Assembly (NCBI GenBank): GCA_040390065.1
Contig: JAZJZE010000005.1
Span: forward strand, 1 to 64,000
DNA length: 64,000 nt
From: a bacterium
Lineage (GTDB): Archaea; Thermoplasmatota; E2; JACPAO01; JAHFTW01
Direction: 5' to 3'
A program made the position numbers and the translations under genes. Positions 8,839-50,785 of this stretch are shown here, piece after piece; within the stretch, counting starts at the first letter, position 1, and each line of letters begins with the position of its first letter. The notes below the pieces were generated by a model, which worked only from the letters and a program-made list of their open reading frames with translations, had not been told where the DNA came from and did no database searches.

Positions 8839-8906
8839 GGCAGGGGCCCCGGTTCCCCGGGCGACCGTTGACTCCTGTTTCAGACATTTAAAGGATTTGG
8901 TCGTCC

Positions 8907-13975: not shown

Positions 13976-17251
<3,276 letters not shown>

Positions 17252-30099: not shown

Positions 30100-31053
30100 T
30101 TACAGGACGATGTCGATGTCGAGCCGCTCAGCCAGTTCCTTGTAGCGGTTGCGAATCGTGACTTCGGTCACGCCCGCCACTTCGGCAACTTCGCGCTGTG
30201 TGCGGCGTTCGCCGCTCAGGATGCTCGCGATGTAGATGGCAGCGGCTGCGACACCCGTGGGACCACGGCCCGAGGTGAGTTCGCGGTCGGCGGCCTGCTT
30301 GAGGATGTCGACCGTCTTCGCCTGGACGTCGCCCGACAGCTTCAGCTCTGAGCAGAAGCGCGGGATGTAGTCCTGCGGCGCCGTCGGCATGAGCTTGAGC
30401 TTGAGTTCGCGGGCGATGAAGCGGTACGTGCGGCCGATCTCCTTGCGGGAGACGCGGCTGGCGTCGGCAATCTCGTCGAGCGTGCGGGGCACGTCGCACT
30501 GGCGGCAGGCGGCGTACAGGGCAGCGGCGGCAACACCTTCGATGGAGCGGCCGCGGATGAGGTTCTTCGTGACGGCGCGGCGGTAGACCATCGCGGCGGT
30601 CTCGCGCACGTTGCGGGGAAGGCCCATGCCCGACGCCATGCGGTCGAGTTCGCTGAGGGCGAAGGCGAGGTTGCGCTCGGTCGCGTTGGAGACGCGGATG
30701 CGGCGCTGCCACTTGCGCAGGCGGTACAGTTGGGCCCGGTTGCGCGTCGGGATCGACTTGCCGTAGGAGTCCTTGTTCTTCCAGCCGATCATGGTGGAGA
30801 GACCCTTGTCGTGGATGGTGTAGGTCATCGGGGCGCCGACACGTGCGCGCTTCTCGCGCTGCTCGGAGTCGAAGGCGCGCCACTCGGGGCCCTGGTCGAT
30901 GAAGGCGTCGTCGAGGACGAGGCCGCAGGTCTCGCAGACCATTTCGCCGCGCTCGTAGTCGGACTGGATGTGGTCCGACCCGCACTCGGGGCAGGTTGTG
31001 ATCTCTTCGATCTTCTGCTTCTCCTTCGTTTTCGGCTTCGCGATGTCGGCCAT
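30100..31053 (-). CDS. tfb: Transcription initiation factor IIB
   Basis: CPECGS..CETCG Zn ribbon, [19 protein letters not shown], two cyclin repeats, [13 protein letters not shown]. Confidence 0.98.
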
Positions 31054-31294
31054 GAAAATCGAGGTCCTGGGCGGCCGATGGGTCGGCCTCCCTGCCTGCT
31101 TTCTGGGTGAGTTGGATAAACACTTAAATCTTTTGGTGATTTGGCCTGGCTTCTTATCTACTCGGAAGAAATTCCGACTTGAACCCTTCGGAATATCCGC
31201 ACCTGGCAAGCCTCCATGGGAAACGCACCTGGTCTTTGCGCCGTCGGGGGGCGAAAGGAACCTTCAAGCGCGAGGCAATCTTGCTCGCCCGGCC

Positions 31295-32437
31295 GTGGAC
31301 CTGCTGCGCGAGCCCCAGCCGACCTCCCTGATTGCGCAGGAGCGGGTGGAACCTGGGCCGCCGGGCCCCACGTTCGTCGGACTCGCCATGGCGATGGCTC
31401 TCGGCGCCTGCGGCGTGGCCGCGTACCTCGGCTTGCGACCGGGGGGACCATTTCCTGTGGAAGAGGCCACGGCCGGCAACCCGGGTTCGATGTATTTCCC
31501 ACTGGGCCTCCACGCGGCGCGCGGAGTGTCCGCATTTGCGGGCGGGTTCGCGGTCGCGGCGTGTGCGTTTGCAGCCCGCAGGCTATGGCACTCCGACGCC
31601 GTGGGGCTGCTCGCGGCTGCAATCCTGGCCCTTGACCCCGGCTTCATCGCCACGGCGCGCGTGGCCACGCCGGAAATGCTGGGAATCGCGGCGCTCGTTG
31701 GCGCCCTCGCGTTCCTCCTTGCTGCCGCCCCGTGGTCCCACTGGGCGGGTGCCGGACTCCTCGCCTTGGCCGCCCTGGTCGATCCCCGCACCGTGCTGTG
31801 GGGCTTGCCTCTGGCCGCAATGACGGTCCTGCGGGGCCACATCTACGCCGCCCCGCGCCACTTGGGCAAGGCCGCCCTCCAGACGGGCGCGGCGCCGCTT
31901 GCTGGCGCCCTCCTCAACCTCCTCTCTGGAGCGCCGGGTCTGGCGCTGCCGCCATGCCAGGTCCCCATCGGTTCGCGACTGCTCCTGTTGGAGGCGCCCG
32001 ACTTCGGCGGCGTCGCCGCGGTGCATGACCCCGTGACCTGGTTCGCCGGCATGGGTGCCTTGCTGCTGCTCGCGGGGGCGGCGCTGTGGATGGTCCTGAA
32101 CCAGGTCCGCATGGCGCGGCTGCCCGGACGCCTTCAGCTTCGCCTGTCGACGGGCCTGCCCGCGCCTCACGGGCGAATCCTGTGGCTCCTCGTGCTGGCG
32201 CTCGCTGCGCCGTTCGGCACGGTCTGGGTGGTCCTGTTCGCGATTGCCCTGGCGGCCGGGATCGGCCTTCTCGCTGAGGATGCTCCCGGTTTTGGTGCCA
32301 CTGTGGCTCTCGTGGTCCTCCTGTTCGGCGTGTTGGCGCTGGTGCGTGCCTGGCCGATGCTGCACTCGATGGGCGACGTGGGCGAGGCGGCATCGGGCCT
32401 GGTGCCGTGGGGAAGCCTGACGCCGTGCATCGGATAA
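31295..32437 (+). CDS. Polytopic membrane protein, divergent PMT/GT-C-like
   Basis: Many TMs; RGVSA..ARRLW..GLLAAAILALDP..ARVA and DPVTWFAG echo PMT motifs; start uncertain. Confidence 0.55.
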   Translation: MDLLREPQPTSLIAQERVEPGPPGPTFVGLAMAMALGACGVAAYLGLRPGGPFPVEEATAGNPGSMYFPLGLHAARGVSAFAGGFAVAACAFAARRLWHSDAVGLLAAAILALDPGFIATARVATPEMLGIAALVGALAFLLAAAPWSHWAGAGLLALAALVDPRTVLWGLPLAAMTVLRGHIYAAPRHLGKAALQTGAAPLAGALLNLLSGAPGLALPPCQVPIGSRLLLLEAPDFGGVAAVHDPVTWFAGMGALLLLAGAALWMVLNQVRMARLPGRLQLRLSTGLPAPHGRILWLLVLALAAPFGTVWVVLFAIALAAGIGLLAEDAPGFGATVALVVLLFGVLALVRAWPMLHSMGDVGEAASGLVPWGSLTPCIG

Positions 32438-33274: not shown

Positions 33275-33402
33275 GGTCATGTTTCTAACTGGGTCCGAGT
33301 CCAAGGCTGGACCCTTACCGGTCTAGCCGCTGGCACGGGCTGTCGCCATCGGTGATGACCCGGCCCTGCGAGCAACTTGGACCACAAATGGAGGAAACAC
33401 AC

Positions 33403-35718
33403 ATGAACAACTACAGCAAAACGTTCGCTGCGGTTGCCTTGCTGGCCGTCGGTGCCCTATTCGCCCCAGTGGCGAATGCGGATGTCGGCCAGTTCGGTAC
33501 CCAAGTCGATACGTTCAACGTGGACGGCGTTCACCCGCTGTTCGTGGCCTTTACCGGCACTACGGATGGAATCACCCTAACGACGGCCTTCAAGTTCGTC
33601 GATGGCAACGGCAACGGCGCCTTCGACAGCGATGAAACGGCCTACTTGGCACCCCTCGCCGCAGCGGCGACGGTCGCGGCGTTCAACGTCCGCGCCACGG
33701 CCTACGGAACGGCGACCGCAACGGCCGCCTTCTCGCAGGTCCGCGTCACCGACACCGACTTCGGCAACCCGTACACCCAGCTGGGTGTCGCCGGCATCGC
33801 GACTTCGATCCTGAAGTTCTACGACTACAACGGTGACGGCCTCTGGAGCGTCAACGACTGGTTCTACATCGACGCCGACAATGGCGGCCGCGTCACGGCC
33901 GGCGACGTCCGCCTCGCTAGCGACCAGACGGGCGCCCTCATGTCCGGCACCCGCGTCGCCACCGGCGCTTCGGACGAGAACCGCGTCCTTGCGACGCCGG
34001 CCCTCTCGGCCCTGACGTTCTACGACTCGGACCGCAGCGGCGTCTACAACCTGGGCGACGTTCTCTACATCGCCCAGCCGGTCGCAGCCCGCGTGCTGGC
34101 AACCGGCGGCGCGACGAGCTTCGTCCGCTCCGAGGATCTCCGCCTGGGCAACCTGGGCGGCGGCTTCGGCGCCGGCAAGGTCGTCCAGCCGTCCGACGTG
34201 GACGTCGTCCACTTCGGTAGCGCGGACGCCCTGTTCAACGGCGCCGCCAACCCGGCGGGCTTCTGTTTCGTCGATGACAACGGCAACGGTGCCTTTGACG
34301 GCGGCGAGACCATGTACTTCGACCAAGGTGTCGCGGTCACGGTCAGCATCAACGACATCCGGCTGACGCCCCGCACGGCTGGCGGCACCTACGCCGCCGG
34401 CTCGCAGGTCGTCTCGTCCGACACGGACGCCGGTGTCGCCTGCACTGCCCGCGCCTTCGCGAACCTTGCCTTCTACGACAACGACGGCAACAACGCGTGG
34501 TCCGTGGACGACTGCGTCTACATTGACACGGACCTGACCGCCTCGGTCAGCCCGAGCGACGTCCGCATCTCGATGTGCGGCCTGTACGCCGCGGGGACCC
34601 GCGTCAACACGCTGGACACCGACGAGACGAAGCCGCTCATCGCGGTCGCCTTCGCCGGGTACGGAGCTGCAAGCTACGCCTTCTACGACGCCGACAACAA
34701 CGCCGCTTACAACACCGGCGACACCGTGTACCTGCAGCAGACCACCAACGCGGCTGCCCAGGTCATGATGCAGGAGGACCTGCGCTTCAACAAGCTCGGG
34801 ACCCTGTACGGCGAAGGCCAGTTCGTCAAGTTCGACAGCATGGACATCACCTACCTGTCGGCTGGCGCCCCCGCCGTCGCGACGTTCATGTTCTTGGACG
34901 ACAACGGCAACGGTGCCTTTGACACCGGCGAGCGCATGTACCTCGACTACGGCGCAGCTGGTGCCGGCGTCGTGAGCATCGGCGACATCCTCGTCAGCCC
35001 TGGCTCGGGCACCGGCAACCCCGGCGACCAGATCCTGGGCTCGAACGGCCAGATTGGCTCCCCGCTCATCGCGGGTACCATCCCGGCCGGCGCTGCGGCA
35101 ATCAAGTACTACGACAACAACGGCGATGGCGTCTGGAGCAACGCGGACCACTTCTACGTGGACGTTGTCGCCCCCGCGACGAACCAGATCTCCGCTGGCG
35201 ATGTCCGCATCACGGCCCACGACGGCAAGGCTGTCGGCTCCCGCGTCCAGTCTAGTGAAATGGACGAAGGCCGCACGCTCAAGGTCGTGCCCGCGAACGC
35301 GGCTCTGTCGTTCTTCGACGTCGACAAGAGCGGTGTCTACAACGTGTGCGACCAGGTCTACTTCGGCCAGGTCGCCCTCGGTGCCGGCGCGTTCTTCGCC
35401 GTCGAGGACGGCCGCCTCGGCGGCACCGCCTCGGTCTGCGCCATGCAGGCAACCCCCGTGGTGCCCCCGGTTACGCCCCCAGTGACGCCCCCGGTTACGC
35501 CCCCGGTTACGCCCCCAGTGACGCCGCCGGTGACCCCACCGGTTACGCCGCCGGTGACGCCCCCGGTGACGCCCCCGGTGACGCCCCCGGTGACGCCCCC
35601 GGTGACCCCGGGTGCAACGCCGGCCGCGAGCCCCACGCCCCAGACCCCCGGCTTTGAGCTGGTGGCCTTGGTCGCCGCTCTCGGCGCAGCGCTGGTCCTG
35701 GTCCGCCGAAAGGCGTAA
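33403..35718 (+). CDS. PGF-CTERM cell-surface (S-layer-like) protein with nine Asp-rich Ca-binding-like repeats
   Basis: Signal peptide; DxNGNG/DxDxSG repeats; (PPVT)12; TPGFELVALVAALGAALVLVRRKA archaeosortase A signal. Confidence 0.88.
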   Translation: MNNYSKTFAAVALLAVGALFAPVANADVGQFGTQVDTFNVDGVHPLFVAFTGTTDGITLTTAFKFVDGNGNGAFDSDETAYLAPLAAAATVAAFNVRATAYGTATATAAFSQVRVTDTDFGNPYTQLGVAGIATSILKFYDYNGDGLWSVNDWFYIDADNGGRVTAGDVRLASDQTGALMSGTRVATGASDENRVLATPALSALTFYDSDRSGVYNLGDVLYIAQPVAARVLATGGATSFVRSEDLRLGNLGGGFGAGKVVQPSDVDVVHFGSADALFNGAANPAGFCFVDDNGNGAFDGGETMYFDQGVAVTVSINDIRLTPRTAGGTYAAGSQVVSSDTDAGVACTARAFANLAFYDNDGNNAWSVDDCVYIDTDLTASVSPSDVRISMCGLYAAGTRVNTLDTDETKPLIAVAFAGYGAASYAFYDADNNAAYNTGDTVYLQQTTNAAAQVMMQEDLRFNKLGTLYGEGQFVKFDSMDITYLSAGAPAVATFMFLDDNGNGAFDTGERMYLDYGAAGAGVVSIGDILVSPGSGTGNPGDQILGSNGQIGSPLIAGTIPAGAAAIKYYDNNGDGVWSNADHFYVDVVAPATNQISAGDVRITAHDGKAVGSRVQSSEMDEGRTLKVVPANAALSFFDVDKSGVYNVCDQVYFGQVALGAGAFFAVEDGRLGGTASVCAMQATPVVPPVTPPVTPPVTPPVTPPVTPPVTPPVTPPVTPPVTPPVTPPVTPPVTPGATPAASPTPQTPGFELVALVAALGAALVLVRRKA
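35464..35607 (+). repeat. 12 x 12-nt coding tandem repeat (PPVT)
   Basis: CCN CCR GTK ACS units counted directly. Confidence 0.92.
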
Positions 35719-36574: not shown

Positions 36575-37864
36575 ATGGAGGTTCCCACCCCGCCCGTACC
36601 CGTTGGCGGCCCGCTGCGGCCACGCCATCGCGGCCTCGGCTGGGAAGTCGGCGCCATCGCGCTCGCGGCCCTGACGATCGGGGCGGCCATCCTGGTGCCC
36701 CAAATGATTGGCGGCAGCAACGCCATGAACGCCGCAGCGCAGATGCCCGCCGAAGGCCCCATCATCGTGGGCTTCATGGCGAACACCGGGCCTTCCAACG
36801 CGACCGCGATTCGGGCGGGTTGCCTGAAGGTGGACGGCACGAACGACTTCGACTGCATCGAAGCCGACCTCGAGGCCGTGCTGCGCGCCGAGGGCTCCGA
36901 AGTCGCTTTCAAGGTCCTCGAAGACATGACCAAGCTCGATCGCGCCATCGAGGCGGACGGCCACCCGCTGGCGCACGGCCTTGGAAGGACGGCGCTCACG
37001 GTCTACGGCGGCCCGCGCACGGCGCTGCACTACTGCCCGTACGTCCTGTCCTCGGGTTGCTTCCACGGCGTGCAGCAGGCCTACTTCGACTCGCTGCCCA
37101 AGATGGAGACCTACATCATCCAGGGCCTGTGCGTGAGCGACGATTCCAGTTGGCGCTTCCAATGCCTGCACGGCATGGGCCACGGGCTCGAACTGTACAC
37201 GAACTACGACCTCAACCGGACGCTTGCCTACTGCGACCTCCTGGATGGTTGGCTTGCCATCGAGTCCTGCCAGGGCGGCGCGTTCATGGAGAACCTCGTC
37301 GGCTACATCGACTCGCAGTCGCCCACGCCGGCGGGCGGCCACAACCACGGCGGCCCCGTTCGCCCCACGCCGGTCTTCCTCGTGAAGCCAAGCGACCCGG
37401 CGTTCCCATGCGACGTCATGGCGGAACCGTACCTCAAGACGTGCTACTACCTGCAGTCGTCGGTGACGCTGCGCTTCAACGGCTTCGACTTCGACGGCGT
37501 CGTGCGCATGTGCCAAGGCGCGCCCACGCGCTACACGGACGTCTGCTTCACCAGCATGGGCCGCGACGCGGGTGCCTCGGTGCGCATGGACCCGGGCGCG
37601 ACTTCGGCGCTGTGCGAGAAGGCCACGCAGGTGCAGGCCGAGGCATGCATCCGCGGTTTCATCGGCGGGGTCGTGAACGACCACAGCGACGCGAACGACT
37701 CCATCCCTGCGTGCCACGACGTCCACCAGCAGTTGAAGGAGGCGTGCTACACGCAGGCCGGCGTGTCCGCCAAGGGAATGCTCGACGCGCAGGCCGTCGG
37801 CCTTCTGTGCAGCCGCGCCGAAGACGGATTCGTCGCCGCATGCCTTCGCGGTGCCGCGTTCTAG
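36575..37864 (+). CDS. Membrane-anchored Cys/His-rich helical repeat protein
   Basis: N-terminal TM; HPLAHGLG, GCFHG, CLHGMGHG, CQGGAFMEN repeats. Confidence 0.78.
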   Translation: MEVPTPPVPVGGPLRPRHRGLGWEVGAIALAALTIGAAILVPQMIGGSNAMNAAAQMPAEGPIIVGFMANTGPSNATAIRAGCLKVDGTNDFDCIEADLEAVLRAEGSEVAFKVLEDMTKLDRAIEADGHPLAHGLGRTALTVYGGPRTALHYCPYVLSSGCFHGVQQAYFDSLPKMETYIIQGLCVSDDSSWRFQCLHGMGHGLELYTNYDLNRTLAYCDLLDGWLAIESCQGGAFMENLVGYIDSQSPTPAGGHNHGGPVRPTPVFLVKPSDPAFPCDVMAEPYLKTCYYLQSSVTLRFNGFDFDGVVRMCQGAPTRYTDVCFTSMGRDAGASVRMDPGATSALCEKATQVQAEACIRGFIGGVVNDHSDANDSIPACHDVHQQLKEACYTQAGVSAKGMLDAQAVGLLCSRAEDGFVAACLRGAAF

Positions 37865-40110
37865 GACGCGCTTGGCGTAGCCTGGGCGCCCCACTGCATG
37901 ACGACGCTCACCTGGGAGCCCGACATCGTGTTCTGCACGAAGCGCCCGATCTCGTGGTAGCAGACGTACTCTTCAGTGGGCTTGTTGACCACGATGAGGA
38001 AATCAGGATGCGACGGCCGATTGCAGGACAGCCCCGGCTCGTAGCCGTCGACGCGCACGTCGAACGTGGGCATGTACGTGAACTGGGCGTACTTGTTCGT
38101 GCCACCGTCGAGGGCGAGCTCCATGCCCGGCTGCAGTTTTCCGTCGAGGAACTGCACGGCGTCGTCCGTGCTGGTGCGCGTGGGCGCCATCAAGATGTAC
38201 GCGGAGAACAACAGCAGCGTCAACGCCAGTGCAGCGACTCGCCCCTTCGTCGCCGGGTCGTGCGGCTCGGCGCGGCCAAGGGCCAGCCACAACAGGGGAA
38301 GGAAGGCGATGACGACGTAGCGGTGGTTGTCGAACCAGAACAGGAGAGTCTTCTCCACGACCCAAAGCTGCGACGCGATGACCCAGGCGATGACGAAGAC
38401 CAGCCCGACGGCGAGCCACAACGCCATCTCACGCTCCTCGCGGATACGCCGCAGGGACGCGCCCAGTTGCGGGAACAAGAACGCGGCGTACCAGAGGAGG
38501 TACAGGGTGAACAGGAGACTCTTGTAGCCGAGGGCCTTGGCGAAGAGGTCGGGCTGCGCCGACGCCGCGGCCCCAGCGGAGGCGATGTCCTGCGCCGTCT
38601 CCCAAGCGGGCCATCCGTGCAGCGTCCCATTGCGCGCCGTCCAGGCCCACGCGAGCGCCCAGACGGCACACGCGGCGACGCCGCCAAGCCAGTACGCACG
38701 CATGCGGCTTGCAGCCGACTGCCTCGGCCGGCCCATCCAGAATAAACCCAACAACAGGAGGCCGCCGCCGGCGACGATGAGCATGTCCTTCGACGACGAC
38801 GAGAGCCACGACACGGCGCCCCCGGGGCCGAAGAGCGAACCGGGGCCGTCCCAGGGCGGGTAGCCCCCGAACAGGCGCACGTTGCGGTCCGCCCACACGG
38901 CGACGCACGCGGCGAAGACGGCGATGGCCCCGACGTACCAGCGATTGGTGAGCACGCGCCAGCCGAGGAAGTGGAAGCGCCAGAGCAAGCCGCCCACACC
39001 GGCCACGACGAAGAACGGGCCGATGCTGGAGCGTGTGAGGTAGGCAAGGCCCGCGGCGGCGCCGGCCGCGAGGATGTACGGCGGCTTCTCCAGGCTCTTC
39101 AGGATGGCCCACAGTGTCACGGCGAAGAGCAGGAGGACGAGGTTCTCGCTGAAGCCGGTCCCCGTGCTCCAGATGAGATGGGGCTCGACGGCGAGGATGG
39201 AGGTCACGAGCAGGGCGCGGCCCCGTCCGAACAGGCTGGCACTCGTGAAGTACACGGTCGTAAGTGCTGCCAGAGCCATCGTGACGGCCGCGATCTTCGT
39301 CTGCAGCACGCCGAAGCCGATGACGGTGTACACGAGGCCGAGGTACAGCGGGTACATGGGCGGGTAATGGTGGCTGTAGCCCGGCGTGGAGCCGATCCAC
39401 GTCGTGACGTCGCCGTACGGCATCAGGAACTCGTGGTGCTCCATCCACGCCTTGCCCATCGCCGAGTACGTCCCACCGTCCGCCCAGATGTCCATCGACC
39501 AGATGGTAGCAACACGCAGTACGACGCCGATGGCGATGACCATGAGTGCTGCCCCCGTGAGCGGCACGCGGTCGATGAGGCGACGAATGCGCTGGCCGTA
39601 CGCCGTCCACGCGCGGCCCTCGCTTGCCGCCCGCCACGCAGCGCCGGAAAAGTACGGGTCGCAGCCGCGCGACAACGCGAGGAGGCCAGCCAGAAGGATG
39701 CACGCAGCGGCCGCGGCGTTGGACAGGTTCGGGTCCGGCGCGTACAGCCCACGATGCCACAGGCCGTACGCGCTCGCAACGAAGGCGCCGCATGCCAGGA
39801 CCCGGGCGCGACGCGAGCCCCACGCGAGGGCAAGGCCGACGACGGGGAGGATGACCGCGAGCACCGCCAGGATGTCCAACGACAGGCGCGGGTGCCGCCA
39901 CATGGCGCCGTAGAGTTCGCCGTCGACGCGTTGGATGTCCAGCCATTGGCCGGCACGGATCTGGCCGATTCCCCACAACGGAATCGCGGCCAGCAGGGCA
40001 GTCCCAGCCGCGGCAATCGTCACCAGAAGCGGGCGCGGCGGCGACGGGCGGCCGGGGGCGAGGGCCGCGGAGGCAACCTCCGGACCGGTCGTCTGGGGCA
40101 TGGCTGCCAT
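37861..40110 (-). CDS. GT-C fold glycosyltransferase (ArnT/PMT_2-like)
   Basis: ADGGTY acidic loop, HYPPMYP, FSENL, LAYLTR, RY; many TMs; TTATA about 30 nt upstream. Confidence 0.82.
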   Translation of the reverse strand: MAAMPQTTGPEVASAALAPGRPSPPRPLLVTIAAAGTALLAAIPLWGIGQIRAGQWLDIQRVDGELYGAMWRHPRLSLDILAVLAVILPVVGLALAWGSRRARVLACGAFVASAYGLWHRGLYAPDPNLSNAAAAACILLAGLLALSRGCDPYFSGAAWRAASEGRAWTAYGQRIRRLIDRVPLTGAALMVIAIGVVLRVATIWSMDIWADGGTYSAMGKAWMEHHEFLMPYGDVTTWIGSTPGYSHHYPPMYPLYLGLVYTVIGFGVLQTKIAAVTMALAALTTVYFTSASLFGRGRALLVTSILAVEPHLIWSTGTGFSENLVLLLFAVTLWAILKSLEKPPYILAAGAAAGLAYLTRSSIGPFFVVAGVGGLLWRFHFLGWRVLTNRWYVGAIAVFAACVAVWADRNVRLFGGYPPWDGPGSLFGPGGAVSWLSSSSKDMLIVAGGGLLLLGLFWMGRPRQSAASRMRAYWLGGVAACAVWALAWAWTARNGTLHGWPAWETAQDIASAGAAASAQPDLFAKALGYKSLLFTLYLLWYAAFLFPQLGASLRRIREEREMALWLAVGLVFVIAWVIASQLWVVEKTLLFWFDNHRYVVIAFLPLLWLALGRAEPHDPATKGRVAALALTLLLFSAYILMAPTRTSTDDAVQFLDGKLQPGMELALDGGTNKYAQFTYMPTFDVRVDGYEPGLSCNRPSHPDFLIVVNKPTEEYVCYHEIGRFVQNTMSGSQVSVVMQWGAQATPSAS

Positions 40111-40238
40111 CGTCGATTCGTGCCGAGTGGCTGGCGCCGTATAAGCGGCCACATTGCGACGCCGAGGCGGCCTTGCGCCAGGGGCCATGCAAGGGCAATC
40201 CAGCAAAGCTTGAATGAGGGTGCCCAGTGGCGCAGCCG

Positions 40239-40763: not shown

Positions 40764-40814
40764 AGGCCTCCCTGGTTCGAGTCCTTTATACGAGGGTTGT
40801 CCATCAGGGGACTC

Positions 40815-43700
40815 ATGCTTGGCCGCCCGCGCCTTCCGCTGTGGTTGACCGTCGTCGTCATCGCCCTCATGGCCGTTCCGTCGACGAGCGCGCAGTACTC
40901 CACGTATGGAACCTTTGTCCTGACCGCGGACGCCGACGCAAGCCACATGCCCAACGTGGCCAGCGGCAGTGCGGTCTTTGCCTTCAACGATGCCACGGCC
41001 GACTGCCAAGTCCAGAACACGGAACGCGTCTACATGGACCGCGACGGCACTGGAACCGTCACGCTGGGCGACGTGCGCATCACCGTGGGCAGCCCAGCCG
41101 TCGGGACGGCCATGCAGGTCGTCACGAGCGGCGCGACGGATCTCACGAATGTGCTCAAGGCGGCCATCGGCGGCGTCTCCCCGGCCTGCGCGGGCACCAA
41201 CCTAGGCGACCTCCTCTTCTACAAGGAATTCTACAGTGGGGCCCGCACGGTCACGACGGGCTTCACGGTGAGCGGAAAGGGCGCCTATCTCGACCTCAAC
41301 GCCAACGGGCGCGTGGACACGAACGACGTTCGCCTTGCCGCAGTCAGCGCAACCGCAGGCACCTTCGTGGCGGCCGAAGCGGACGCCGACCCGGGTGCCT
41401 TGACCACGACGGAGTACACGGCAAACGCCGACTGTATCTACCTGTCCGCCGACGCCCTCGTCGGGACGGGCGACACGCGCCTCGGCCGCTGCGGCGAGTA
41501 CCTCGACGCGTCGGTCGTCGCCTGCGCGGCGCCCGTCTTGGACACAGACTGCGGCCAGACCCTCCTCACAATCGCCAATGCGCGCCTCGGCGCCAACGGC
41601 AAGTACTACGACGACATCGATGCTTCGGGCGTCGTCCCGAACACGGGCGACCGCCGGCTGCAGCCCGTGGGCGCTCTCGTCGAGGGGACGGCGCTGGCAT
41701 GCGGCACGCCGGATGCCGACTGCGCCGCGGCCAACCCGTACGGGGCGGCCCTTACGACCGTCCGTTACTCGCGACGCGGCTACGACTTGTCGGCTCCCGC
41801 CATCCTCGCCTTCGACACGAACGACGACGGAACCTTGCCGGAAATCGTCCTCGTGGACCGCGACGCAAACGGCGTTCCCTCCATCGGCGACTTGCGCCTC
41901 AACGGCGGCACCTTCGTCCTGCAGGCCGATGCCGACGTCGTCCACAAGCTGCTGACGCCAGGCACACCACCTATTCTTGCCTACCAAGGCACGCCCTCTG
42001 CGCCCACCGCCGTCGCCCTCATCACGGACGCCACGAATGGCGGCAGCTCGCTCGACCAGGAGGACGTCGTCCTTTTCCTTTCCGGCTGCACCGTCGGCAG
42101 CATCGTCCGCTCCACTGCTGCGTGCAACCCGGCAGGAACTTGGAACTCGGTGGCCGGAACGGCCATCGCGAACATCAAGTACCGCGAATCCGGCGCCGGT
42201 GCAGGCTTCGGCGCGGGGGACACGCTGTACGCCAGCCTTGGCGCCACGTCGACCAACGTGGACACCGACGACCTTCGCCTGACGGCCTACTCGACCGGCA
42301 CACCGGGAACCCTGGTCGGGGCAGGCCTGACCGGTGAATCCGGCAGCGCGCTCCTGGCAATCGCCGGCTCAATCATCCGCGTCCTTGACATGGACGGAAG
42401 TGGGACGATCACGCCGGGCGACGTGCCCATCGTTGATGCCAACAACGACGCCTACCTCTCACAGAGCGACGTGCCCGTGGCCACCGGCATCACGAACGTG
42501 GCCTTCGGCACGATTGCGCCGGCCGGCAATGCGGCCGTGGTGCACCAGCTCGTTGCCATCGGCACCCACAACCAGGGCACCGGGAGCCCATGGGCCGTCA
42601 AGTACCTCGACAACGACGGCAGCGGCGGGCCGAGCCTCAACGACCCCATCTACCTTCACGTCGCAAGCCCAGACCTGAAGTGGCGCCTCAGCGCCAACTC
42701 CAACGGCCTCGCAGCGGGGACGTTTGCGTCCACTGAAAGCCCCGCCCTGTTTACCAGTCTCACGGCCACGGGCGTCTGCACAAATCCCATCGCGTACGCG
42801 GAGGTCGCCGGCGCCGGCTTCAGTTCGGAGGATGACGTCTACGTGGACGTTGCCGGCTGCGGCAGCATCGGCACGGGCGACATCTACCTGAAGAAGTCGG
42901 GGAAGACGCCGGGCCTCAAGGTTGGCGGGTCCGACACGCAGGGCGGCATCCTAACAGCCATCACGACGACAGCGTTGTCGTACTTCGACCTGGATGCCAC
43001 GGCGGCCCTGAGCGGCGGGGACCTTCTGTACCTCGACGCGGACACGCCGGCTGGCCTCGTCTCCCTCTTCGACTTCCGCCTCTCCGGCACCGGCGGCACG
43101 ACGACGCTTGGCTCCGTGGCCCCGCCGCCTCCGCCGCCCCCGCCACCGCCGCCGCCGGTCACGCCGCCCGTGACGCCTCCTGTCACGCCGCCGGCCACGC
43201 CGCCTGCGACGCCGCCGGCAACGCCCCCAGCGACTCCGCCAGCCACGCCGCCAGCCACGCCGTCCAGCGTCGACCTTGCCAGCGTCAACGGCGCGCTTGC
43301 CTCGACCCTGAAGGTCACGCATGTCGGCAACGACAACGTCCTGCAGTGGACTCCGCAGACAGGCGTCCTCGGCTACCAAGTGTGGAGCAGCAGCAGCCCA
43401 TGGGTCAAGGTCACCGACCTGCCGGGCCCCACGACCTCCACCTACACGGACGTGAACTCGCCGGCGACGACGAAGTACACGGTCACGGCATACACCGGCC
43501 TGTCGGCCACGTTCGGCTACTTGACGGACATCAACACACAGGCCGTCCCCGGCTACAGCACGGTCCCGGCGGGAACCTCCGCGGCCGGATCCTCGCTGTC
43601 CTCGACGACCGGCGGGCAGTCGAAGGTCCCCGGCTTCGAGACCGTCGTCCTGGTGGGTGCGGTGGCAATCGCTCTCCTCCTCGTGCGGCGCCGCAAGTAG
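40815..43700 (+). CDS. Second PGF-CTERM surface protein with related Asp-rich repeats, Pro/Thr linker and FN3-like domain
   Basis: TTTATA at 40785; YLDLNANGRVDTNDVRL-type repeats; PPVT/PPAT run; VPGFETVVLVGAVAIALLLVRRRK. Confidence 0.87.
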   Translation: MLGRPRLPLWLTVVVIALMAVPSTSAQYSTYGTFVLTADADASHMPNVASGSAVFAFNDATADCQVQNTERVYMDRDGTGTVTLGDVRITVGSPAVGTAMQVVTSGATDLTNVLKAAIGGVSPACAGTNLGDLLFYKEFYSGARTVTTGFTVSGKGAYLDLNANGRVDTNDVRLAAVSATAGTFVAAEADADPGALTTTEYTANADCIYLSADALVGTGDTRLGRCGEYLDASVVACAAPVLDTDCGQTLLTIANARLGANGKYYDDIDASGVVPNTGDRRLQPVGALVEGTALACGTPDADCAAANPYGAALTTVRYSRRGYDLSAPAILAFDTNDDGTLPEIVLVDRDANGVPSIGDLRLNGGTFVLQADADVVHKLLTPGTPPILAYQGTPSAPTAVALITDATNGGSSLDQEDVVLFLSGCTVGSIVRSTAACNPAGTWNSVAGTAIANIKYRESGAGAGFGAGDTLYASLGATSTNVDTDDLRLTAYSTGTPGTLVGAGLTGESGSALLAIAGSIIRVLDMDGSGTITPGDVPIVDANNDAYLSQSDVPVATGITNVAFGTIAPAGNAAVVHQLVAIGTHNQGTGSPWAVKYLDNDGSGGPSLNDPIYLHVASPDLKWRLSANSNGLAAGTFASTESPALFTSLTATGVCTNPIAYAEVAGAGFSSEDDVYVDVAGCGSIGTGDIYLKKSGKTPGLKVGGSDTQGGILTAITTTALSYFDLDATAALSGGDLLYLDADTPAGLVSLFDFRLSGTGGTTTLGSVAPPPPPPPPPPPPVTPPVTPPVTPPATPPATPPATPPATPPATPPATPSSVDLASVNGALASTLKVTHVGNDNVLQWTPQTGVLGYQVWSSSSPWVKVTDLPGPTTSTYTDVNSPATTKYTVTAYTGLSATFGYLTDINTQAVPGYSTVPAGTSAAGSSLSSTTGGQSKVPGFETVVLVGAVAIALLLVRRRK

Positions 43701-43794
43701 GCCGTCACAGCCGGTTGCACCGCCCGGTCTGGCGGGGCGTCCCCCGACGAATCCCCTCCGGTTTTTCTACCACGACGGAGTGGGTTCTCTAGCC

Positions 43795-46700
43795 GTGGCG
43801 CCCCTGCTCTCCGTGGTCATCCCCACGTACAACGAGGCGGCCAACATCGGGCCGCTGTTGGGGGAGCTTCGGCGCGTCATGGCGGGCCTGGAGGTCGAGT
43901 TCATCGTCGTCGACGACGACTCGCGCGACGGCACGTCAGAGAAAGCGCGCCTGGCCGAGCCAAGGGCCCGCATCATCGTCAGGAAAGGCGAACGCGGTCT
44001 AGCCACGGCCGTCGTGCGCGGTATCCGGGAAGCGCATGGCACCTTCGTCGCCGTCATGGACGCTGACTTCCAGCATCCGCCGGCCGCGGTGCGGGCCATG
44101 CTCGACCGGGCCGTGCGGACGCAGGCGGACCTCGTGGTCGGCTCGCGCTATGCGCCGGGCGGTTCCCAGGGCAACTTCGGGGCCGTCCGCAGCACCATCT
44201 CCAAGGGCGCCCGCCTCATCGCCAAGACGGCGCTCCCACCAATCCGGAACTTCAAGCTCACGGACCCGATGAGCGGCCTTTTCCTGGTGCGCCGCGACCG
44301 GGTCGACGCGGGCGCCCTCCGGCCGACCGGATACAAGATCCTCCTCGAGATCCTCGGCAAGGCGGACCTGCGCCGCGTCGAGGAGGTCGGCTACCGCTTC
44401 CAGGACCGGCGGGGCGGGGCGTCGAAGCTGGGGGGCGGAGTCATGCTGCAGTTCCTGGTGCACGTCCTCGGCCTTGGCCTCACGCACCCCGAGAACCAGA
44501 GGATCCTGCGCTTCATGCTGGTGGGTGCCAGCGGCATCGTCGTCAACCTCGGCGTCCTGTTCGTCCTGCACGGCTTGTTCGGCATCGAGGTGACACCGGC
44601 CTTCGCGAGCGCTGCGGGGCTCAGCATCCTCACGAATTTCCTATTGAACGACGCCTTCACCTTCCGCGACCGCGCGAAGGCGCCATGGATCGCCCGGCTT
44701 GGCATGTTCTTCCTCGTGAGCCTCGGCGGCATGCTCACGACGTTTGCGGCGCTCTTCGTGTTGTACTACCTCATCGGCATGAACTACCTCGTTGCCGACG
44801 GCTTGGCGATCGTGGCGGGATTCGCCGTGAACTATGCCGGAAATCTCGGCTTCACGTACGGCACGAAGCGCCCGGCCGCGCGTGACTGGGTTCCCATCGT
44901 CGTGCTGATCGTCGCCTCGGGAGGGCTGTACTTCTCCGCCCTCGACTCCGTGGAGGGCATCTACTTCGACGAATCGTACTACCTCGTCGTCGCCCACCAG
45001 ATGGACAGCGGCATGTGGGAGGACCCGTGCCTGCACGACGCCAAGGGCCTCGACCCCGCGCCGCTCAACTACGAGCATCCACCGCTTGCCAAACTCATCA
45101 TGTACGCCTCGGTGCACGCCTACGACTCATACCATGGCGTCTTCCTCGGCTGCCGCATGCCGGACAACGACAACCCGGCCGTTCGCCCCGCCATCTGCTT
45201 CACCGATCCGGAAGGACACACGAGCGCCACGTACGACGACGCCAACGAACGCATCAGCAAGGGGGACAAGTTCGACAACGGCCCGACCTGCTACCACGCC
45301 TGGTCGCACGAGATGCGCTACCGCGGCAACGCCTTCGCGTGGCGTGGACCAAGCGCCGTGATGGGCGTCGTGACGGTGACGTTCATCGCCCTCGCAGCGC
45401 GCCGGCTCTTCCAGAGCAACCTGGCCGGAATGCTCGCCGGCTCCTTCGTCCTCTTGGACAACCTCGTCCTGACGTCCAGCCGCATCGCACTCTTGGACAT
45501 CTTCGCCGCGGGATTCACGGCCATGGCCGTCTACTTCGCGACGTCGCCGACGAAGAAGGGCATCGTCGCCACCACCATCTTCCTCGGCCTGGGATTCTCC
45601 TGCAAGTTCTACGTGCTCTTCGCCGGCCCGCCCATCCTCCTCCTGTCGCTCTGGATCCACCACCGCGCCGGCCTGCTGCGCATGGGACGCTTCACGCTGC
45701 ACATGCTTGCGTACCCACTCATCCCACTGGGCGTCTTCGTCGCGACGTACCTGCCCTGGCTCATCCGCTGGTCGCAGTCGCACAACATCGGCTGGGCGGT
45801 CGGCCACTTCTTCGCCGTCAACGCAGCCGCAATCTCCTGGGATACAACGGGCCTGCAGACGCACACGTACCTCAGCCCGCCGTCGGAATGGCTCAGCATG
45901 ACGACGCCGATGAACTACATCCACGCGGCCACGAACTACGACGTCTCCGACGGCACCCACTACACGTTGTATCGCGACATCTACGCCATGGGAAATCCCG
46001 CGCTGTGGTGGGGCGCGACGGCCGCCGTCGTCGCAATCTTGTGCCTCGTTGCCTACCGCTTGGCCCGTGCGGCCATGCCGCGGCCCATCCAAGCGCCGGT
46101 CCCGACTTCCCCTGCGCGCCTCGGAGCGGTCTCATTGCCCTCGCCCCCGCGACCGATGGACGCGCAACGACCGGTCGTCATTCCTGGGGCCCCGCCCCTT
46201 GCACGCGCGATGGCGCCCGCGCCGCGCGCCCTTCAGCCGCTGGACGCGCGCGCCCAGATCGCCGGCGGCCTCGGGCTGCTCGCCTCGTTCTTGCTGGTCC
46301 TCGTCGGTCTGGCCACTCTTCGCATCCTGCCCGCGGCCTTGACGTTCTCGGCCGGGGGACTGGCGTTCGGCATCTTGGCGTTCGTCCTCGCCGTGGCGCA
46401 GACGGCAAGCAGCATCGCCCTTTTCGGCCGGGGCCACGCCGCGACCCCCATGCAGATCGTCGTGGCGATGGCAACGTTCCTCGTCACAATCGCGTTCATG
46501 GTCCCGAGTGGCCAAGGCATTGACCTCATCCTCGGCCTTCTCCTCGCCCTGGACGTCGCCGTCCTGGCCCTGCTTGCCTTGCGCGACTTCGTGCGCCTGC
46601 CGCCGGCAACGCAGGCCCTGCTCCTTGGCGCCCTCGTGCCCATGATGACCTTTCTCGGCTTCTTCGCGCTCCTGAAGGGTGGCCGCTCCATGTTCATCTT

Positions 46701-47007
46701 CTACATGACCGAGGTCGCGCCCCTCATGGCGCTGGTGCTGGGCGGGGCCGTCGCGCATCTATGGCGTCGCGTTCGCTGGGGCAAGCCCGCAGCCCTCGCC
46801 ACGATTGCCCTCGTGGCCTTCGCCTTCGTGTGGTTCCTGCCCGTGACGATCTACCTCGAGCTTCCCCGCGAGGGATTCCGCTGGATGGACCTGCCAATCC
46901 CCGGAACCGGCATCTCGATTCCATACCCCGGCATCGGGTTCCACGACATCATGGGACTCGTTCCGTGGATGCACGAATGCGGCGCGGGCGGCGCATGCGT
47001 GCCGTGA
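43795..47007 (+). CDS. Fusion: GT2 polyprenol-P-mannose synthase-like + GtrA-like + PMT/GT39 protein mannosyltransferase-like
   Basis: VIPTYNEAANI, VDDDSRDGT, MDADFQHPP; RFMLVGASGIVVNLG..NFLLNDAFTFRD; YFDESYY, EHPPLAK, SRIALLDIF, HTYLSPPSEW, GNPALWW, RSMFIFYM. Confidence 0.9.
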   Translation: MAPLLSVVIPTYNEAANIGPLLGELRRVMAGLEVEFIVVDDDSRDGTSEKARLAEPRARIIVRKGERGLATAVVRGIREAHGTFVAVMDADFQHPPAAVRAMLDRAVRTQADLVVGSRYAPGGSQGNFGAVRSTISKGARLIAKTALPPIRNFKLTDPMSGLFLVRRDRVDAGALRPTGYKILLEILGKADLRRVEEVGYRFQDRRGGASKLGGGVMLQFLVHVLGLGLTHPENQRILRFMLVGASGIVVNLGVLFVLHGLFGIEVTPAFASAAGLSILTNFLLNDAFTFRDRAKAPWIARLGMFFLVSLGGMLTTFAALFVLYYLIGMNYLVADGLAIVAGFAVNYAGNLGFTYGTKRPAARDWVPIVVLIVASGGLYFSALDSVEGIYFDESYYLVVAHQMDSGMWEDPCLHDAKGLDPAPLNYEHPPLAKLIMYASVHAYDSYHGVFLGCRMPDNDNPAVRPAICFTDPEGHTSATYDDANERISKGDKFDNGPTCYHAWSHEMRYRGNAFAWRGPSAVMGVVTVTFIALAARRLFQSNLAGMLAGSFVLLDNLVLTSSRIALLDIFAAGFTAMAVYFATSPTKKGIVATTIFLGLGFSCKFYVLFAGPPILLLSLWIHHRAGLLRMGRFTLHMLAYPLIPLGVFVATYLPWLIRWSQSHNIGWAVGHFFAVNAAAISWDTTGLQTHTYLSPPSEWLSMTTPMNYIHAATNYDVSDGTHYTLYRDIYAMGNPALWWGATAAVVAILCLVAYRLARAAMPRPIQAPVPTSPARLGAVSLPSPPRPMDAQRPVVIPGAPPLARAMAPAPRALQPLDARAQIAGGLGLLASFLLVLVGLATLRILPAALTFSAGGLAFGILAFVLAVAQTASSIALFGRGHAATPMQIVVAMATFLVTIAFMVPSGQGIDLILGLLLALDVAVLALLALRDFVRLPPATQALLLGALVPMMTFLGFFALLKGGRSMFIFYMTEVAPLMALVLGGAVAHLWRRVRWGKPAALATIALVAFAFVWFLPVTIYLELPREGFRWMDLPIPGTGISIPYPGIGFHDIMGLVPWMHECGAGGACVP

Positions 47008-47184
47008 GGGCATTCCGCAGAATCCCTCCGGTCGGTCATCCACCTGGAAACCCGCAGATTGGCCCAGCCGGCTTGGTCAATCGGCGGAATCTGCTCCCAG
47101 TCAGCGCCATTGCAGGACGTGCAAGAGCTCACCAGGACGATGCCTGAACTCTCAGCGGAATCTGTGGACAAGCGGCGCCAGGCG

Positions 47185-48270
47185 CTAGCGCTTCAAGTGC
47201 GCCTTCAACGCCTTGATCTCGCGGATCTCGGCCGGGTCTTCGCCCTTCAGGGCCGCGACGTAGACGGACGTGTAGTCGAGGAACTGCAGCATGCGCGCCT
47301 GCTCGACGACGTGCTCGCCGAAGGTCTCGATGGGTCGCGCAACCTTGTTGGTCCACGGCACGCCCCAGCCACGGTAGCGCTCCTCCATGTAGGCAAGGCG
47401 CTTGCGCAGTTGCGGGTTCTGGCCTTCGTGGCTAAGGCAGAGGACCGTGAAGTGGCGGCGGTTCTCGACGTCGCCGCCCCAACCGGTCAAGTCGTTGTGG
47501 TTGGATTCCGGGACGAGGTCGACGTCGGCGATCTTCTTGGCATTCTCGTTCAGCATGCCGCGGAAATGCAGGCCGACGCCGTAGAACGCCGGTGTCGCGT
47601 AGATCTGGGGAATCGGCCGCCACAGTTCACGCGCCAGCTTCTTGGCCGGGTTCTTGGCTTCCGGCACGTCGGGACCGCAGGCGGCATCGACCTCCTGGAC
47701 GGCCTTGACCGCTTGGCGAATGGGGACGGCGCCATGCAGGAGGCCGGAACCCTCGAGGAAACCGAGGACCGAGAACCACGTGTACCCGAAGGCGGCACGC
47801 GGCTGGTAACCGGCCGGCTGCGGCACGATGCGGTCGACGAGGCTCGCCAAGGTCCCGCCCGTGCAGAACGCCGTCACGGGCACACCGCGCTCCAGGCTCG
47901 TGCGCACGACCTGCAAGGTCTCCTCCGTCTCGCCCGAGTACGAGATGGCCAGCGTGTGCCAGCCCTTCTTCACGTGGTGGGGGAACTGGTAGTGCTTGAC
48001 GACGGAGAACGGGATGTCGAGGGCCCGGGTGGCTGCGTCCTTCACCAGGTTGGCGCACATGCCCGAGAAGCCCATGCCGGCAAACAGCAGTCCCTTTGCC
48101 TTGAGCAGGTCGGGAGCGGCCTTCGACCCGGAGTCGAAGCCCTCCCGGAGGAGACGGGCCTTGGCCTGGATGGACGGCATGAAGCCCGACGGGTCGCGCA
48201 GCGCCGGCTCGCCGTTGCGGCCGGGCCCGCGCCCTGCAAGGGCAGCAGTGGGTGCCGGTTTGCGGGCCAC
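47185..48270 (-). CDS. Bifunctional phosphoglucose/phosphomannose isomerase (SIS)
   Basis: GMGFSG, SYSGETEET, TGG, QPRAA, NENAK, PESNHN, IKALK; start may be later than given. Confidence 0.88.
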   Translation of the reverse strand: MARKPAPTAALAGRGPGRNGEPALRDPSGFMPSIQAKARLLREGFDSGSKAAPDLLKAKGLLFAGMGFSGMCANLVKDAATRALDIPFSVVKHYQFPHHVKKGWHTLAISYSGETEETLQVVRTSLERGVPVTAFCTGGTLASLVDRIVPQPAGYQPRAAFGYTWFSVLGFLEGSGLLHGAVPIRQAVKAVQEVDAACGPDVPEAKNPAKKLARELWRPIPQIYATPAFYGVGLHFRGMLNENAKKIADVDLVPESNHNDLTGWGGDVENRRHFTVLCLSHEGQNPQLRKRLAYMEERYRGWGVPWTNKVARPIETFGEHVVEQARMLQFLDYTSVYVAALKGEDPAEIREIKALKAHLKR

Positions 48271-48382
48271 GCTCGCGCCCAGCGGTGTCCACCTCTAGAA
48301 GCCTTTCATGACGCCAGGAGCGGGACGGGATGCGGAAGGCAACGTTTCTAATGAGGACCAAGGTTGGTTGGCCCGGAACTGC

Positions 48383-50720: not shown

Positions 50721-50785
50721 GGACCCCCTCCTTGGCCTTTAAGGGCGGACCCGGCCTACAACCCCTGTTGCGCGACCTTCTGGCA

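Follow-up and report, generated by a model that had tools for sequence, protein, structure and literature searches.

The window analysed here, a stretch of 64,000 nucleotides (positions 1 to 64,000 of the forward strand of contig JAZJZE010000005.1, assembly GCA_040390065.1), carries a gene whose product joins two enzymes in a single chain: a dolichyl-phosphate mannose synthase (DPMS), followed by a glycosyltransferase of the C fold (GT-C) of the protein O-mannosyltransferase (PMT), or GT39, type. The model that we favour, and hold to be probable, is that of a bifunctional enzyme which would make dolichyl-phosphate mannose (Dol-P-Man) inside the cell and O-mannosylate secreted proteins outside it. 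The gene and the parts of its product are as follows (ScPmt1, yeast Pmt1; TM, transmembrane).

43795..47007, + strand: whole gene, fused DPMS-PMT protein of 1070 residues; GTG start at 43795, stop codon at 47005-47007
43795..44487, + strand, residues 1-231: GT2 catalytic domain and interface helices of a type-III DPMS, predicted cytoplasmic; Pfam GT2 match at 6-168, phmmer alignment to 5mlz
44059-44076, + strand, residues 89-94: DADFQH motif, within the GT2 domain
44488..44862, + strand, residues 232-356: four-helix GtrA-like DPMS membrane domain; GtrA_DPMS_TM match at 239-352, alignment to the 5mlz TM domain
44878..46104, + strand, residues 362-770: GT39/PMT core with TM1, external loop 1 (D392-E393 and HPPLAK 428-433), R517 and GNPALWW; Pfam PMT and PMT_4TMC
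44968-44973, + strand: D392-E393 of loop 1, aligned to ScPmt1 D77/E78
45481-45498, + strand: R563-x4-D568, aligned to ScPmt1 R184...D189
residues 706-731, + strand: beta-hairpin loop of the PMT core; AlphaFold2 model
46105..46602, + strand, residues 771-936: lineage-specific insert, Pro-rich and disordered at first, with additional hydrophobic helices after that
46603..47004, + strand, residues 937-1070: final membrane helices of the PMT, then a small beta unit at the C-terminus; ScPmt1 profile alignment
46684-46695, + strand: R964-x2-F967, aligned to ScPmt1 R649/F652

The first-pass annotation of this DNA, made from its letters, had read the locus as one uninterrupted frame of about 1070 residues, and this is what we find. 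The longest forward-strand frame in the open reading frame list (43657-47007) is open over 1116 codons, the start of the fused homologues in their alignment coincides with the GTG at 43795, and a public protein collection contains the identical 1070-residue product (P0002, 100% identity). The G+C content of the window is 65-70%. An 11,465-base contig from another assembler reproduces 43700-47041 with 0 differences and 0 gaps, and no read or contig splitting the gene in two was found; the run behind that contig is possibly the source sample, so that it is not independent and excludes an assembler artefact only. No RNA run is listed for positions 44300-45500 of the window, and the single DNA run that contains the stretch is again possibly the source sample. 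The homologue search, whose rows are clusters at 90% identity, returned 74 proteins, 66 of which (P0002-P0067, E<=7.4e-189) possess GT2, GtrA_DPMS_TM and a PMT-type domain. An artefact of assembly or gene calling, or a decaying gene with one inactive half, might be suspected from the draft state of the host genome (2.68 Mb in 50 contigs, 89% complete, 0.3% contamination, with the gene on a 449.5-kb contig) and from genome G066, whose separate DPMS and PMT frames overlap by 32 bases, in principle a frameshift. We give this suspicion practically no weight: an artefactual fusion is ruled out by the open frame, by the second assembly (with the reserve just made), by the fused clusters, which come from several sources, by 11 loci of species-level genomes where both halves are contiguous in one frame, and by the catalytic positions of both halves, invariant in all 64 fused homologues that were aligned.

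The host organism is an archaeon, as had been supposed, because a TFIIB gene (window 30100-31209, Pfam scan) and an STT3/AglB gene lie on the same 449.5-kb contig as the DPMS-PMT gene, and because archaeosortase A is encoded elsewhere in the genome (106.6 bits against a cut-off of 75).

In the 1070-residue protein, Pfam recognizes Glycos_transf_2 at 6-168 (E 4.9e-30), GtrA_DPMS_TM at 239-352 (3.6e-26), PMT (PF02366) at 511-625 (9.8e-11, 42.1 bits against 22.7), PMT_4TMC (PF16192) at 671-760 (1.4e-10, 41.4 bits against 32.4) and, as a weaker match than PMT, PMT_2 at 512-630 (1.5e-7, 32.2 bits). All five, the profiles by which the first-pass annotation had suggested checking the protein, exceed their gathering scores, and its domain coordinates are correct to within a few codons. 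The motifs it had quoted are likewise all present in the translation: DADFQHPP at 89-96, FDE at 391-393, HPPLAK at 428-433, SRIALLD at 562-568, HTYLS at 690-694 and GNPALWW at 733-739. The AlphaFold2 model of the full-length chain has a mean predicted local distance difference test score (pLDDT) of 87.7 and a predicted template-modelling score (pTM) of 0.84; for the C-terminal half modelled separately, these values are 87.6 and 0.89.

The N-terminal half had been taken for a Dol-P-Man synthase of the Pyrococcus type, and the alignments bear this out. With phmmer against the PDB, residues 5-356 align to positions 25-373 of the 374 of 5mlz_A (E 4.8e-75), that is, with about 40% identity to the whole Pyrococcus furiosus DPMS (PfDPMS), all four membrane helices included; in the model, the corresponding helices are found at 232-261, 266-289, 298-327 and 331-354. 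Foldseek recovers PfDPMS at E 5.8e-20 with a TM score of 0.78 on the target. By sequence, GtrB and chondroitin synthase are matched at 1e-8 to 1e-10. The idea of a three-module architecture has to be abandoned: because residues 5-356 align to the whole 5mlz chain, the GT2 and GtrA blocks are, judging from this alignment, one known enzyme, a type-III DPMS with its intrinsic TM domain, and what the protein joins are two known enzymes. The same end-to-end alignment rules out the reading in which GT2 and GtrA would be independent modules. The stand-alone form of such synthases measures about 350-380 residues, whereas the present chain runs 714 residues further into the GT-C.

The PfDPMS residues that contact the donor, the metal and dolichyl phosphate (Dol-P) are named in PMC5526996 (2017), with DADLQH at 89-94. 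They were mapped by hand on the phmmer alignment, with a chain numbering offset of 22 that was checked on DADLQH. E12, D39, L69, D89, D91, Q93, H94, R117, R131, S135, K178, R202 and K208 of PfDPMS correspond to the identical residues E14, D41, L69, D89, D91, Q93, H94, R118, R132, S136, K181, R205 and K211, and F177 is replaced by Y180; the identity thus concerns 13 of the 14 contact residues, and 9 of the 10 that form the GDP-mannose/Dol-P-phosphate subset outside DADxQH. Each of the 14 positions, as well as the DADxQH motif, is invariant in 64/64 fused homologues. In the TM domain, PMC12992685 describes a polar pocket formed by N248, N277 and R341 (Asn replaces this Arg in every sequence from outside the Thermococcales) and a gate residue, F338; their counterparts here are N251 (conserved in 56/64), N281 (64/64), N346 (64/64) and F343 (60/64). 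That crystallographic article (2026, from the same laboratory as the PfDPMS structure paper) reports that Dol-P-Man sits 'upside-down' in the TM domain and considers translocation as a possible moonlighting role, so that flipping by the TM domain of a type-III DPMS is a published hypothesis and not an established function. The words fusion, fused, PMT and GT-C are absent from PMC12992685.

Could the N-terminal half load a sugar other than mannose, for example from UDP-glucose as GtrB, AglK and Alg5 do, the whole being then an O-glucosyl or O-hexosyl transferase? No NCBIfam model reaches its cut-off with the fused protein, and the best GT2 matches in this collection (AglJ, at 62.8 against 325, then PpgS and ArnC-type models) are of other specificity; moreover, related haloarchaeal 'DPMS-like' GT2s turned out to use other sugars (PMC9943897). 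We nevertheless find this very unlikely, given that the guanine-reading Asp (D39 of PfDPMS, D41 here) and the four side chains close to the mannosyl hydroxyls (D89, H94, R117 and K178, here D89, H94, R118 and K181) are identical and invariant, that the mannose enzyme is by far the closest solved relative (5e-75 against 1e-8 to 1e-10), and that a phosphomannose isomerase gene, described below, is a conserved neighbour.

As for the C-terminal half, the first-pass annotation had judged it PMT/GT39-like while naming the lipid-modifying ArnT type as the reading to be feared, and Pfam, profile and fold searches uphold its judgement. A profile of the whole protein, built from 21 fused homologues and compared with the PDB, matches only PMTs among the GT-C chains (Chaetomium thermophilum Pmt4 9i5k at 1e-11, yeast Pmt1 6p25_A at 8.5e-9 and yeast Pmt4 9e61 at 9.7e-8). 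A second profile, restricted to the PMT half and made of nine sequences (the window, five genus relatives, the two PMT genes of G066, and P0078), retrieves 4 PMT chains below an E-value of 1e-3 and, apart from these, no GT-C; neither family profile retrieves an ArnT chain at E<=1. When the C-terminal half is compared by Foldseek from its model, all 7 matches at E<1e-3 are fungal PMTs; oligosaccharyltransferase, AglB and ArnT come next, at 3e-3 to 2e-2. In a fold search over 48,161 representative chains, Pmt2 (Z 31.5, root-mean-square deviation 3.3, 432 aligned residues) and Pmt4 (Z 30.9, 433 aligned) rank above ArnT (Z 25.5, 346 aligned), AglB (24.5) and ALG12 (23.7). Residues 362-1070 are therefore a GT-C of the GT39/PMT type and not an ArnT-like one; the ArnT/GT83-type reading is ruled out by the profiles, by Foldseek and by the fold ranking.

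The HMMER profile alignment to ScPmt1 places D77/E78 on D392/E393, HPPLAKM on H428-K433, R138 on R517, R184...D189 on R563...D568 and R649/F652 on R964/F967. In the Mycobacterium tuberculosis PMT (MtPMT), whose D74/E75 pair is the counterpart of D77/E78, the residues D74, D176, R441 and Y444 are required for activity (PMC12331936). The second essential Asp of PMTs (ScPmt1 D189, MtPMT D176), in external loop 2, often belongs to an Rx4-6D motif. The positions of D392, E393, R517, R563, D568 and R964 are invariant in 64/64 fused homologues, and position 967 is occupied by F in 57 of them and by Y in 7, the same alternation as that between Pmt1 (R649/F652) and Pmt2 (R671/Y674), MtPMT having R441/Y444. 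Both halves of the fused protein are thus intact members of their families in which every position known to be essential is conserved. The insert at 771-936 occurs in only 4 of the 64 aligned fused homologues (P0002 to P0005), and its disordered part, at 772-813, has a pLDDT <50.

At the junction, the model contains a basic linker (K358, R359, R363), then helix 362-380, with D392-E393 directly after it. The chain would re-enter the cytoplasm after the four helices of the DPMS, their number being even, and MtPMT has a cytosolic N-terminus and a periplasmic C-terminus (PMC12331936). Because of this even number and of the cytosolic N-terminus of MtPMT, the fusion would be topologically coherent, the site of the synthase being inside and the PMT loops outside.

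The genes that surround the DPMS-PMT gene bear on its substrate and on the origin of its mannose.

40797..43700, + strand: candidate acceptor, a secreted protein of 967 residues; ends 95 bases before the DPMS-PMT start
33352..35718, + strand: second Pro/Thr-rich surface protein, 788 residues, with the tail TPPVTPPVTPGATPAASPTPQTPGFELV...; richest S+T+P window 0.77
47185..48270, - strand: bifunctional phosphoglucose/phosphomannose isomerase (PGI/PMI), convergent with DPMS-PMT; Pfam bact-PGI_C, 2.4e-30
37861..40206, - strand: GT-C gene, 781 residues; Pfam PMT_2, 5.2e-9
30968..32437, + strand: GT-C gene, 489 residues, with no PMT_4TMC; weak Pfam PMT match, 3.9e-6, 27.0 bits against 22.7

The 967-residue protein has a start that resembles a signal peptide, and combines 12 consecutive Pro, VTPP/ATPP repeats, a conserved domain of about 100 residues, a Ser/Thr-rich stalk and a PGF...RRRK tail. 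A custom regular expression found such PGF tails in 16 of the 2157 long high-GC3 frames of the genome, and among these 16 the richest 30-residue windows in Ser, Thr and Pro belong to the 967-residue protein (0.83) and to the 788-residue protein (0.77), so that the two most Pro/Thr-rich surface proteins of the genome are both encoded within 10 kb upstream of DPMS-PMT. The 788-residue protein scores 20.5 bits with PGF_CTERM (NCBIfam), under the cut-off of 24.5. A homologous S/T/P-rich tailed protein of >1000 residues is encoded directly upstream in 3 of the 5 genus relatives; in the fourth, the surface-protein homologue lies one small gene further, and in the fifth no homologue was found. In locus L026 (genome G238), a 164-residue frame stands between the surface-protein and DPMS-PMT genes, and by eye it resembles a toxin of the PemK/MazF type (VLVPFPFSNL...KNRPALVL). 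Bacterial GT39 enzymes classically O-glycosylate Pro/Thr linkers. In Caldicellulosiruptor bescii, too, the GT39 gene is found near that of its acceptor (PMC6151902). On the downstream side, the PGI/PMI gene matches the NCBIfam PGI/PMI models at 1e-43 to 1e-49, all under their cut-offs; it is convergent with DPMS-PMT in 5/5 genus relatives, and its product is predicted to catalyse the first step toward GDP-mannose.

The model we propose combines these observations. The cytoplasmic DPMS half would transfer mannose from GDP-mannose to dolichyl phosphate, as its conserved residues suggest. The Dol-P-Man so formed would reach the outer face either through the four-helix domain of the synthase, as proposed for the Pyrococcus enzyme, or through another flippase. 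The GT39 half, its active-site loops turned outward, would then transfer the mannose to Ser/Thr residues of secreted proteins, which is the activity expected from its family. Surface proteins such as the product of the gene directly upstream, with their Pro/Thr-rich linkers and their Ser/Thr-rich stalks, would offer the likeliest acceptors. We infer, from the sequences and the gene neighbourhood, GDP-mannose as the donor, protein Ser/Thr as the acceptor and the upstream surface protein as a substrate.

Several points weigh against this model. In a phmmer search of the PDB, the lone C-terminal half retrieves no PMT, but only chance-level beta-xylosidase rows (E 0.06-1); its identity to characterised PMTs is only 13-17% in structural alignments; and the NCBIfam equivalog of bacterial Pmt, NF058602, scores 37.9 bits against a cut-off of 800. 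By these scores, the PMT half is a distant member of the GT39 family and not an orthologue of the characterised bacterial Pmt. A MIR domain was not found in the fused protein (no Pfam match at E<=1), and the beta hairpin 706-731 occupies the loop concerned; bacterial PMTs, for their part, also have no MIR domain (PMC8147084). With regard to the substrate, the 967-residue protein gives no PGF_CTERM match at E<=1e-3, its tail having been called by eye and by regular expression, and the argument from the upstream gene comes from 5 close, non-independent relatives, one of which is without this neighbour. Membership of GT39 predicts a protein acceptor without proving one, and the Thermoplasmatales are known for mannose-rich lipoglycans (PMC12448462). 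Finally, the synthase half may feed other consumers instead of forming part of a closed pipeline, because it is the sole Dol-P-Man synthase found in an 89%-complete genome that also has several other GT-C genes. Indeed, the genome search returned no second type-III DPMS (its other GT2 matches have <=35% identity over <=188 residues) and no other GtrA_DPMS_TM domain.

Part of these objections nourishes an alternative that we hold to be unlikely, in which the GT-C half would use Dol-P-Man not on protein but on a lipid-linked or membrane glycan of the outer face, whether a lipoglycan, an N-glycan precursor or a polysaccharide. Many Dol-P-Man-dependent GT-Cs act in this manner, mannosyltransferases of the ALG12, ALG9, ALG3 and PimE type have the same fold (Z 12.6-23.7), the PMT half is highly divergent, and the genome encodes AglB and several PMT_2-type GT-Cs, two of the latter in the window. 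Furthermore, a tetraether lipoglycan with glucose and mannose is the dominant component of Thermoplasmatales membranes (PMC12448462). On the other hand, PMT and PMT_4TMC both exceed their Pfam cut-offs, the family profiles match PMTs only among the solved GT-C chains, the PMT-specific residues (DE, Rx4D, Rx2F/Y and HPPLAK) are invariant, the PMTs come first in the fold ranking, 5-6 Z units and some 90 aligned residues ahead, and the two surface proteins of highest Pro/Thr content lie just upstream. It is the weight of these points that makes us prefer O-mannosylation of secreted proteins.

Could the protein be a self-contained machine that makes, flips and transfers? In this extension of the bifunctional model, the membrane domain of the DPMS would turn Dol-P-Man outward to the PMT and Dol-P would return by the same route. 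That the TM domain hands Dol-P-Man to the PMT is our hypothesis, and the complete cycle is a tentative proposal that we regard as possible but rather doubtful. If true, a single polypeptide placed in a sealed liposome with GDP-mannose on one side would yield an O-mannosylated peptide on the other side, and a Dol-P-Man translocator and the first archaeal protein O-glycosyltransferase would be identified together. The crossing of the membrane by Dol-P-Man is a long-standing question. The natural fusion puts the proposed flipping domain between the synthase and the consumer acting outside, and sister lineages keep the two genes adjacent; fusion and adjacency together constitute independent comparative support for a functional hand-off, and the fused enzyme offers a one-protein system in which to study it.

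With respect to its distribution, the fusion is not unique to the window. Most fused homologues measure 830-930 residues. All come from uncultured archaea; they bear no other name than 'glycosyltransferase' or 'dolichol-phosphate mannosyltransferase' and originate from metagenome-assembled genomes assigned to Thermoplasmata, Thermoplasmatota or 'Halobacteriales'. When the PMT half alone served as query, 54 of 55 matches were fused, the stand-alone one being P0078 (553 residues, 29% identity). Among 301 genomes of the phylum, both halves are in one frame in 7, namely the 6/6 of the genus, host included, and G271 of the same family. PMT_4TMC was detected in 10 of the 301 and exceeds the cut-off in 9, all of one order (families f1, f2 and f3); among 14 control genomes it was detected only in Corynebacterium glutamicum, and in 0/4 of the archaeal controls.

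The other two families exhibit the halves as separate genes. In G066 (family f2), the gene of a 383-residue DPMS is followed by two PMT genes (542 and 667 residues), with overlaps of 32 and 16 bases, in the manner of an operon. The tandem PMT paralogues of this locus (L028, G066 contig C125, 2189-6925) differ in their loop-1 motif, TLDEKHY in one and DWDETHY in the other. In G191 (family f3), they stand next to each other in divergent orientation. In all, three gene arrangements link DPMS with PMT.

When 185,579 species genomes were scanned with a pattern, 68 loci emerged, in 11 of which DPMS and PMT are contiguous in one frame; these loci may overlap the genomes of the phylum survey, and the counts are not additive. 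At L047 and L050 the DPMS adjoins the PMT in another frame, and at L051 it does so on the opposite strand. The other loci correspond to distant PMT-like genes of Desulfurococcales, Acidilobus, Caldisphaera, Bathyarchaeia and various bacteria. Within 3 kb of these distant loci no type-III DPMS was found, except for weak GT2 matches at L074 and L078. Among the loci of the scan, weak PMT-like matches, of 22-38% identity over 70-250 residues and with a pattern of the NxEHPPLxK type, belong to Desulfurococcales, Acidilobus, Caldisphaera, Ignisphaera and Sulfolobales (L054, L057-L059, L061-L063, L065-L067, L069, L070, L072 and L073); to judge from them, archaea may possess PMT-type GT-Cs more widely than the literature states.

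The origin of the fusion was approached with a maximum-likelihood tree of DPMS halves, rooted at the midpoint, with 33 rows: 19 of 64 fused proteins chosen to span the identity range, 3 PMT-adjacent synthases, and 11 stand-alone ones taken at one or two per family from the 301-genome survey. All fused rows lie on one side of a branch with support 93/86, recovered in 98% of 200 bootstrap trees, and the stand-alone DPMS of G247, from the same family, neighbours the fused group (96/94). Because the fused DPMS halves form one group, the tree fits a single fusion event. Stand-alone PfDPMS-like frames (about 350-500 residues, aligned over residues 2-355 with 35-50% identity) exist in many families of the phylum, and some of the genomes concerned measure 1.2-2 Mb.

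The PMT half has 493 relatives at E<=1e-3 in a library of 50%-identity representatives. We scanned 30 of the 150 relatives listed, and neither GT2 nor GtrA was detected in the 26 longer ones that fall outside the clade; because of this, the fusion is apparently not general among PMT relatives. Five of the relatives (P0082, P0107, P0133, P0154 and P0187; 807-1133 residues) are tandem GT-C fusions of another kind, in which a GT87-like (or PIG-U/ALG6-like) part precedes a full PMT plus PMT_4TMC.

Compared with known systems, the synthase half shares with PfDPMS (5mlz, 5mm0, 5mm1, 9ep0) the DADxQH motif, the donor and acceptor residues, the interface helices and the four-helix TM domain with its polar pocket. 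It differs by the replacements Arg341 to Asn346, which is the state of all non-Thermococcales sequences, and Phe177 to Tyr180, and by the fact that PfDPMS is a stand-alone monomer of about 350 residues (PMC12992685), whereas the fused protein continues into a GT-C. PMC12992685 concludes that type-III DPMS is confined to hyperthermophiles, a view of its hosts that looks too narrow beside the stand-alone frames of many families of the phylum. The DPMS-PMT clade consists of environmental genomes whose data carry no information on growth temperature. The other half shares with the fungal Pmt1, Pmt2 and Pmt4 (6p25, 6p2r, 9e61, 9i5k) the PMT and PMT_4TMC domains, the DE pair after TM1, HPPLAK, the loop-2 Asp and the late Rx2F/Y, and with the bacterial PMTs of M. 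tuberculosis, C. glutamicum and Streptomyces coelicolor the absence of MIR (PMC8147084). It departs from these PMTs by its low identity (13-17%), by its junction to its own donor synthase, by the 166-residue insert that the window protein and three relatives carry in the 4TMC region, and by its archaeal host, the review of PMT evolution stating that 'archaea do not contain Pmts' (PMC8147084); from the eukaryotic ones it differs in having a short beta hairpin in place of MIR.

The three-component systems GtrB/GtrA/Gtr-type GT-C, ArnC/ArnE-F/ArnT and CsbB/GtcA/YfhO follow the same logic of charging, flipping and using outside: a GT2 charges polyprenyl phosphate in the cytoplasm, a GtrA-family protein is the proposed flippase, and a GT-C acts outside (PMC11127046, PMC12992685). 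These are, however, separate bacterial proteins devoted to glycans or lipid A, whereas here one archaeal chain would unite the functions with a GT-C of the protein-modifying GT39 kind. PMC11127046 uses neither the word 'fused' nor the word 'fusion'.

Closer in form are five bacterial proteins, P0070-P0074 (692-902 residues), whose names include 'glycosyltransferase family 39 protein [Planctomycetes bacterium]' and 'dolichol-phosphate mannosyltransferase [Chthoniobacter sp.]'. They also have an N-terminal GT2 followed by a GT-C in one chain, and P0074 even has a weak GtrA_DPMS_TM match, but their likeness to the window protein is confined to the GT2 part (22-24% of the query covered) and their GT-C is an ArnT-like one, with a strong PMT_2 match (1e-37 to 1e-45) and no PMT_4TMC. 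They look like independent fusions, and our literature searches found no characterisation of them. In M. tuberculosis, Ppm1 is a polyprenyl-phosphate mannose synthase fused to an Lnt-like, acyltransferase-like domain of envelope biogenesis; Pmt is a separate gene in actinobacteria, and the partner of Ppm1 is not the GT-C that consumes the mannose.

The first-pass annotation had thought the architecture uncharacterised and perhaps new. The first part stands, since no description of a DPMS-PMT fusion or of a characterised archaeal PMT was found in the full-text literature, most subscription journals being outside its coverage; the uniqueness does not, in view of the 66 fused clusters at 90% identity and of the 11 of 68 loci in species-representative genomes. 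Both parts belong to known families, and databases already list the proteins, with generic names. The pathway of O-glycosylation in archaea is described as so far elusive (PMC8241124), and the DPMS-PMT gene constitutes a concrete, testable candidate for an archaeal O-glycosylation or O-mannosylation machinery: in an archaeal lineage, a GT39-type enzyme that retains all the residues known as essential is encoded beside a Pro/Thr-rich surface protein, its putative substrate, and a two-gene step of the pathway has been welded into one chain.

Other genes of the window deserve mention. A 370-residue protein (48308-49420), which has no Pfam family and a weak HGGxSTG match at its C-terminus (21.2 bits against 29), adjoins the PGI/PMI gene in 5/5 genus relatives. 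TatA (49469-49762) and TatC (49764-50720) are encoded tail to tail beside the cluster, in an order also kept in 5/5 genus relatives. Isoprenoid genes follow downstream (50687-51796, 57015-58097 and 57752-59086), for a mevalonate kinase (TIGR00549, 179.9 bits, over the cut-off), an FMN_dh-type protein, possibly a type-2 isopentenyl-diphosphate isomerase, and a polyprenyl synthetase. At the other end of the window, three large proteins that unite PKD domains with thrombospondin type-3 repeats are encoded on the - strand (6535-9099, 8907-10874 and 12053-13999); the first two frames overlap as listed and their start positions are provisional. These three genes interrupt those of carbamoyl-phosphate synthase (10727-12049 and 13880-17251).

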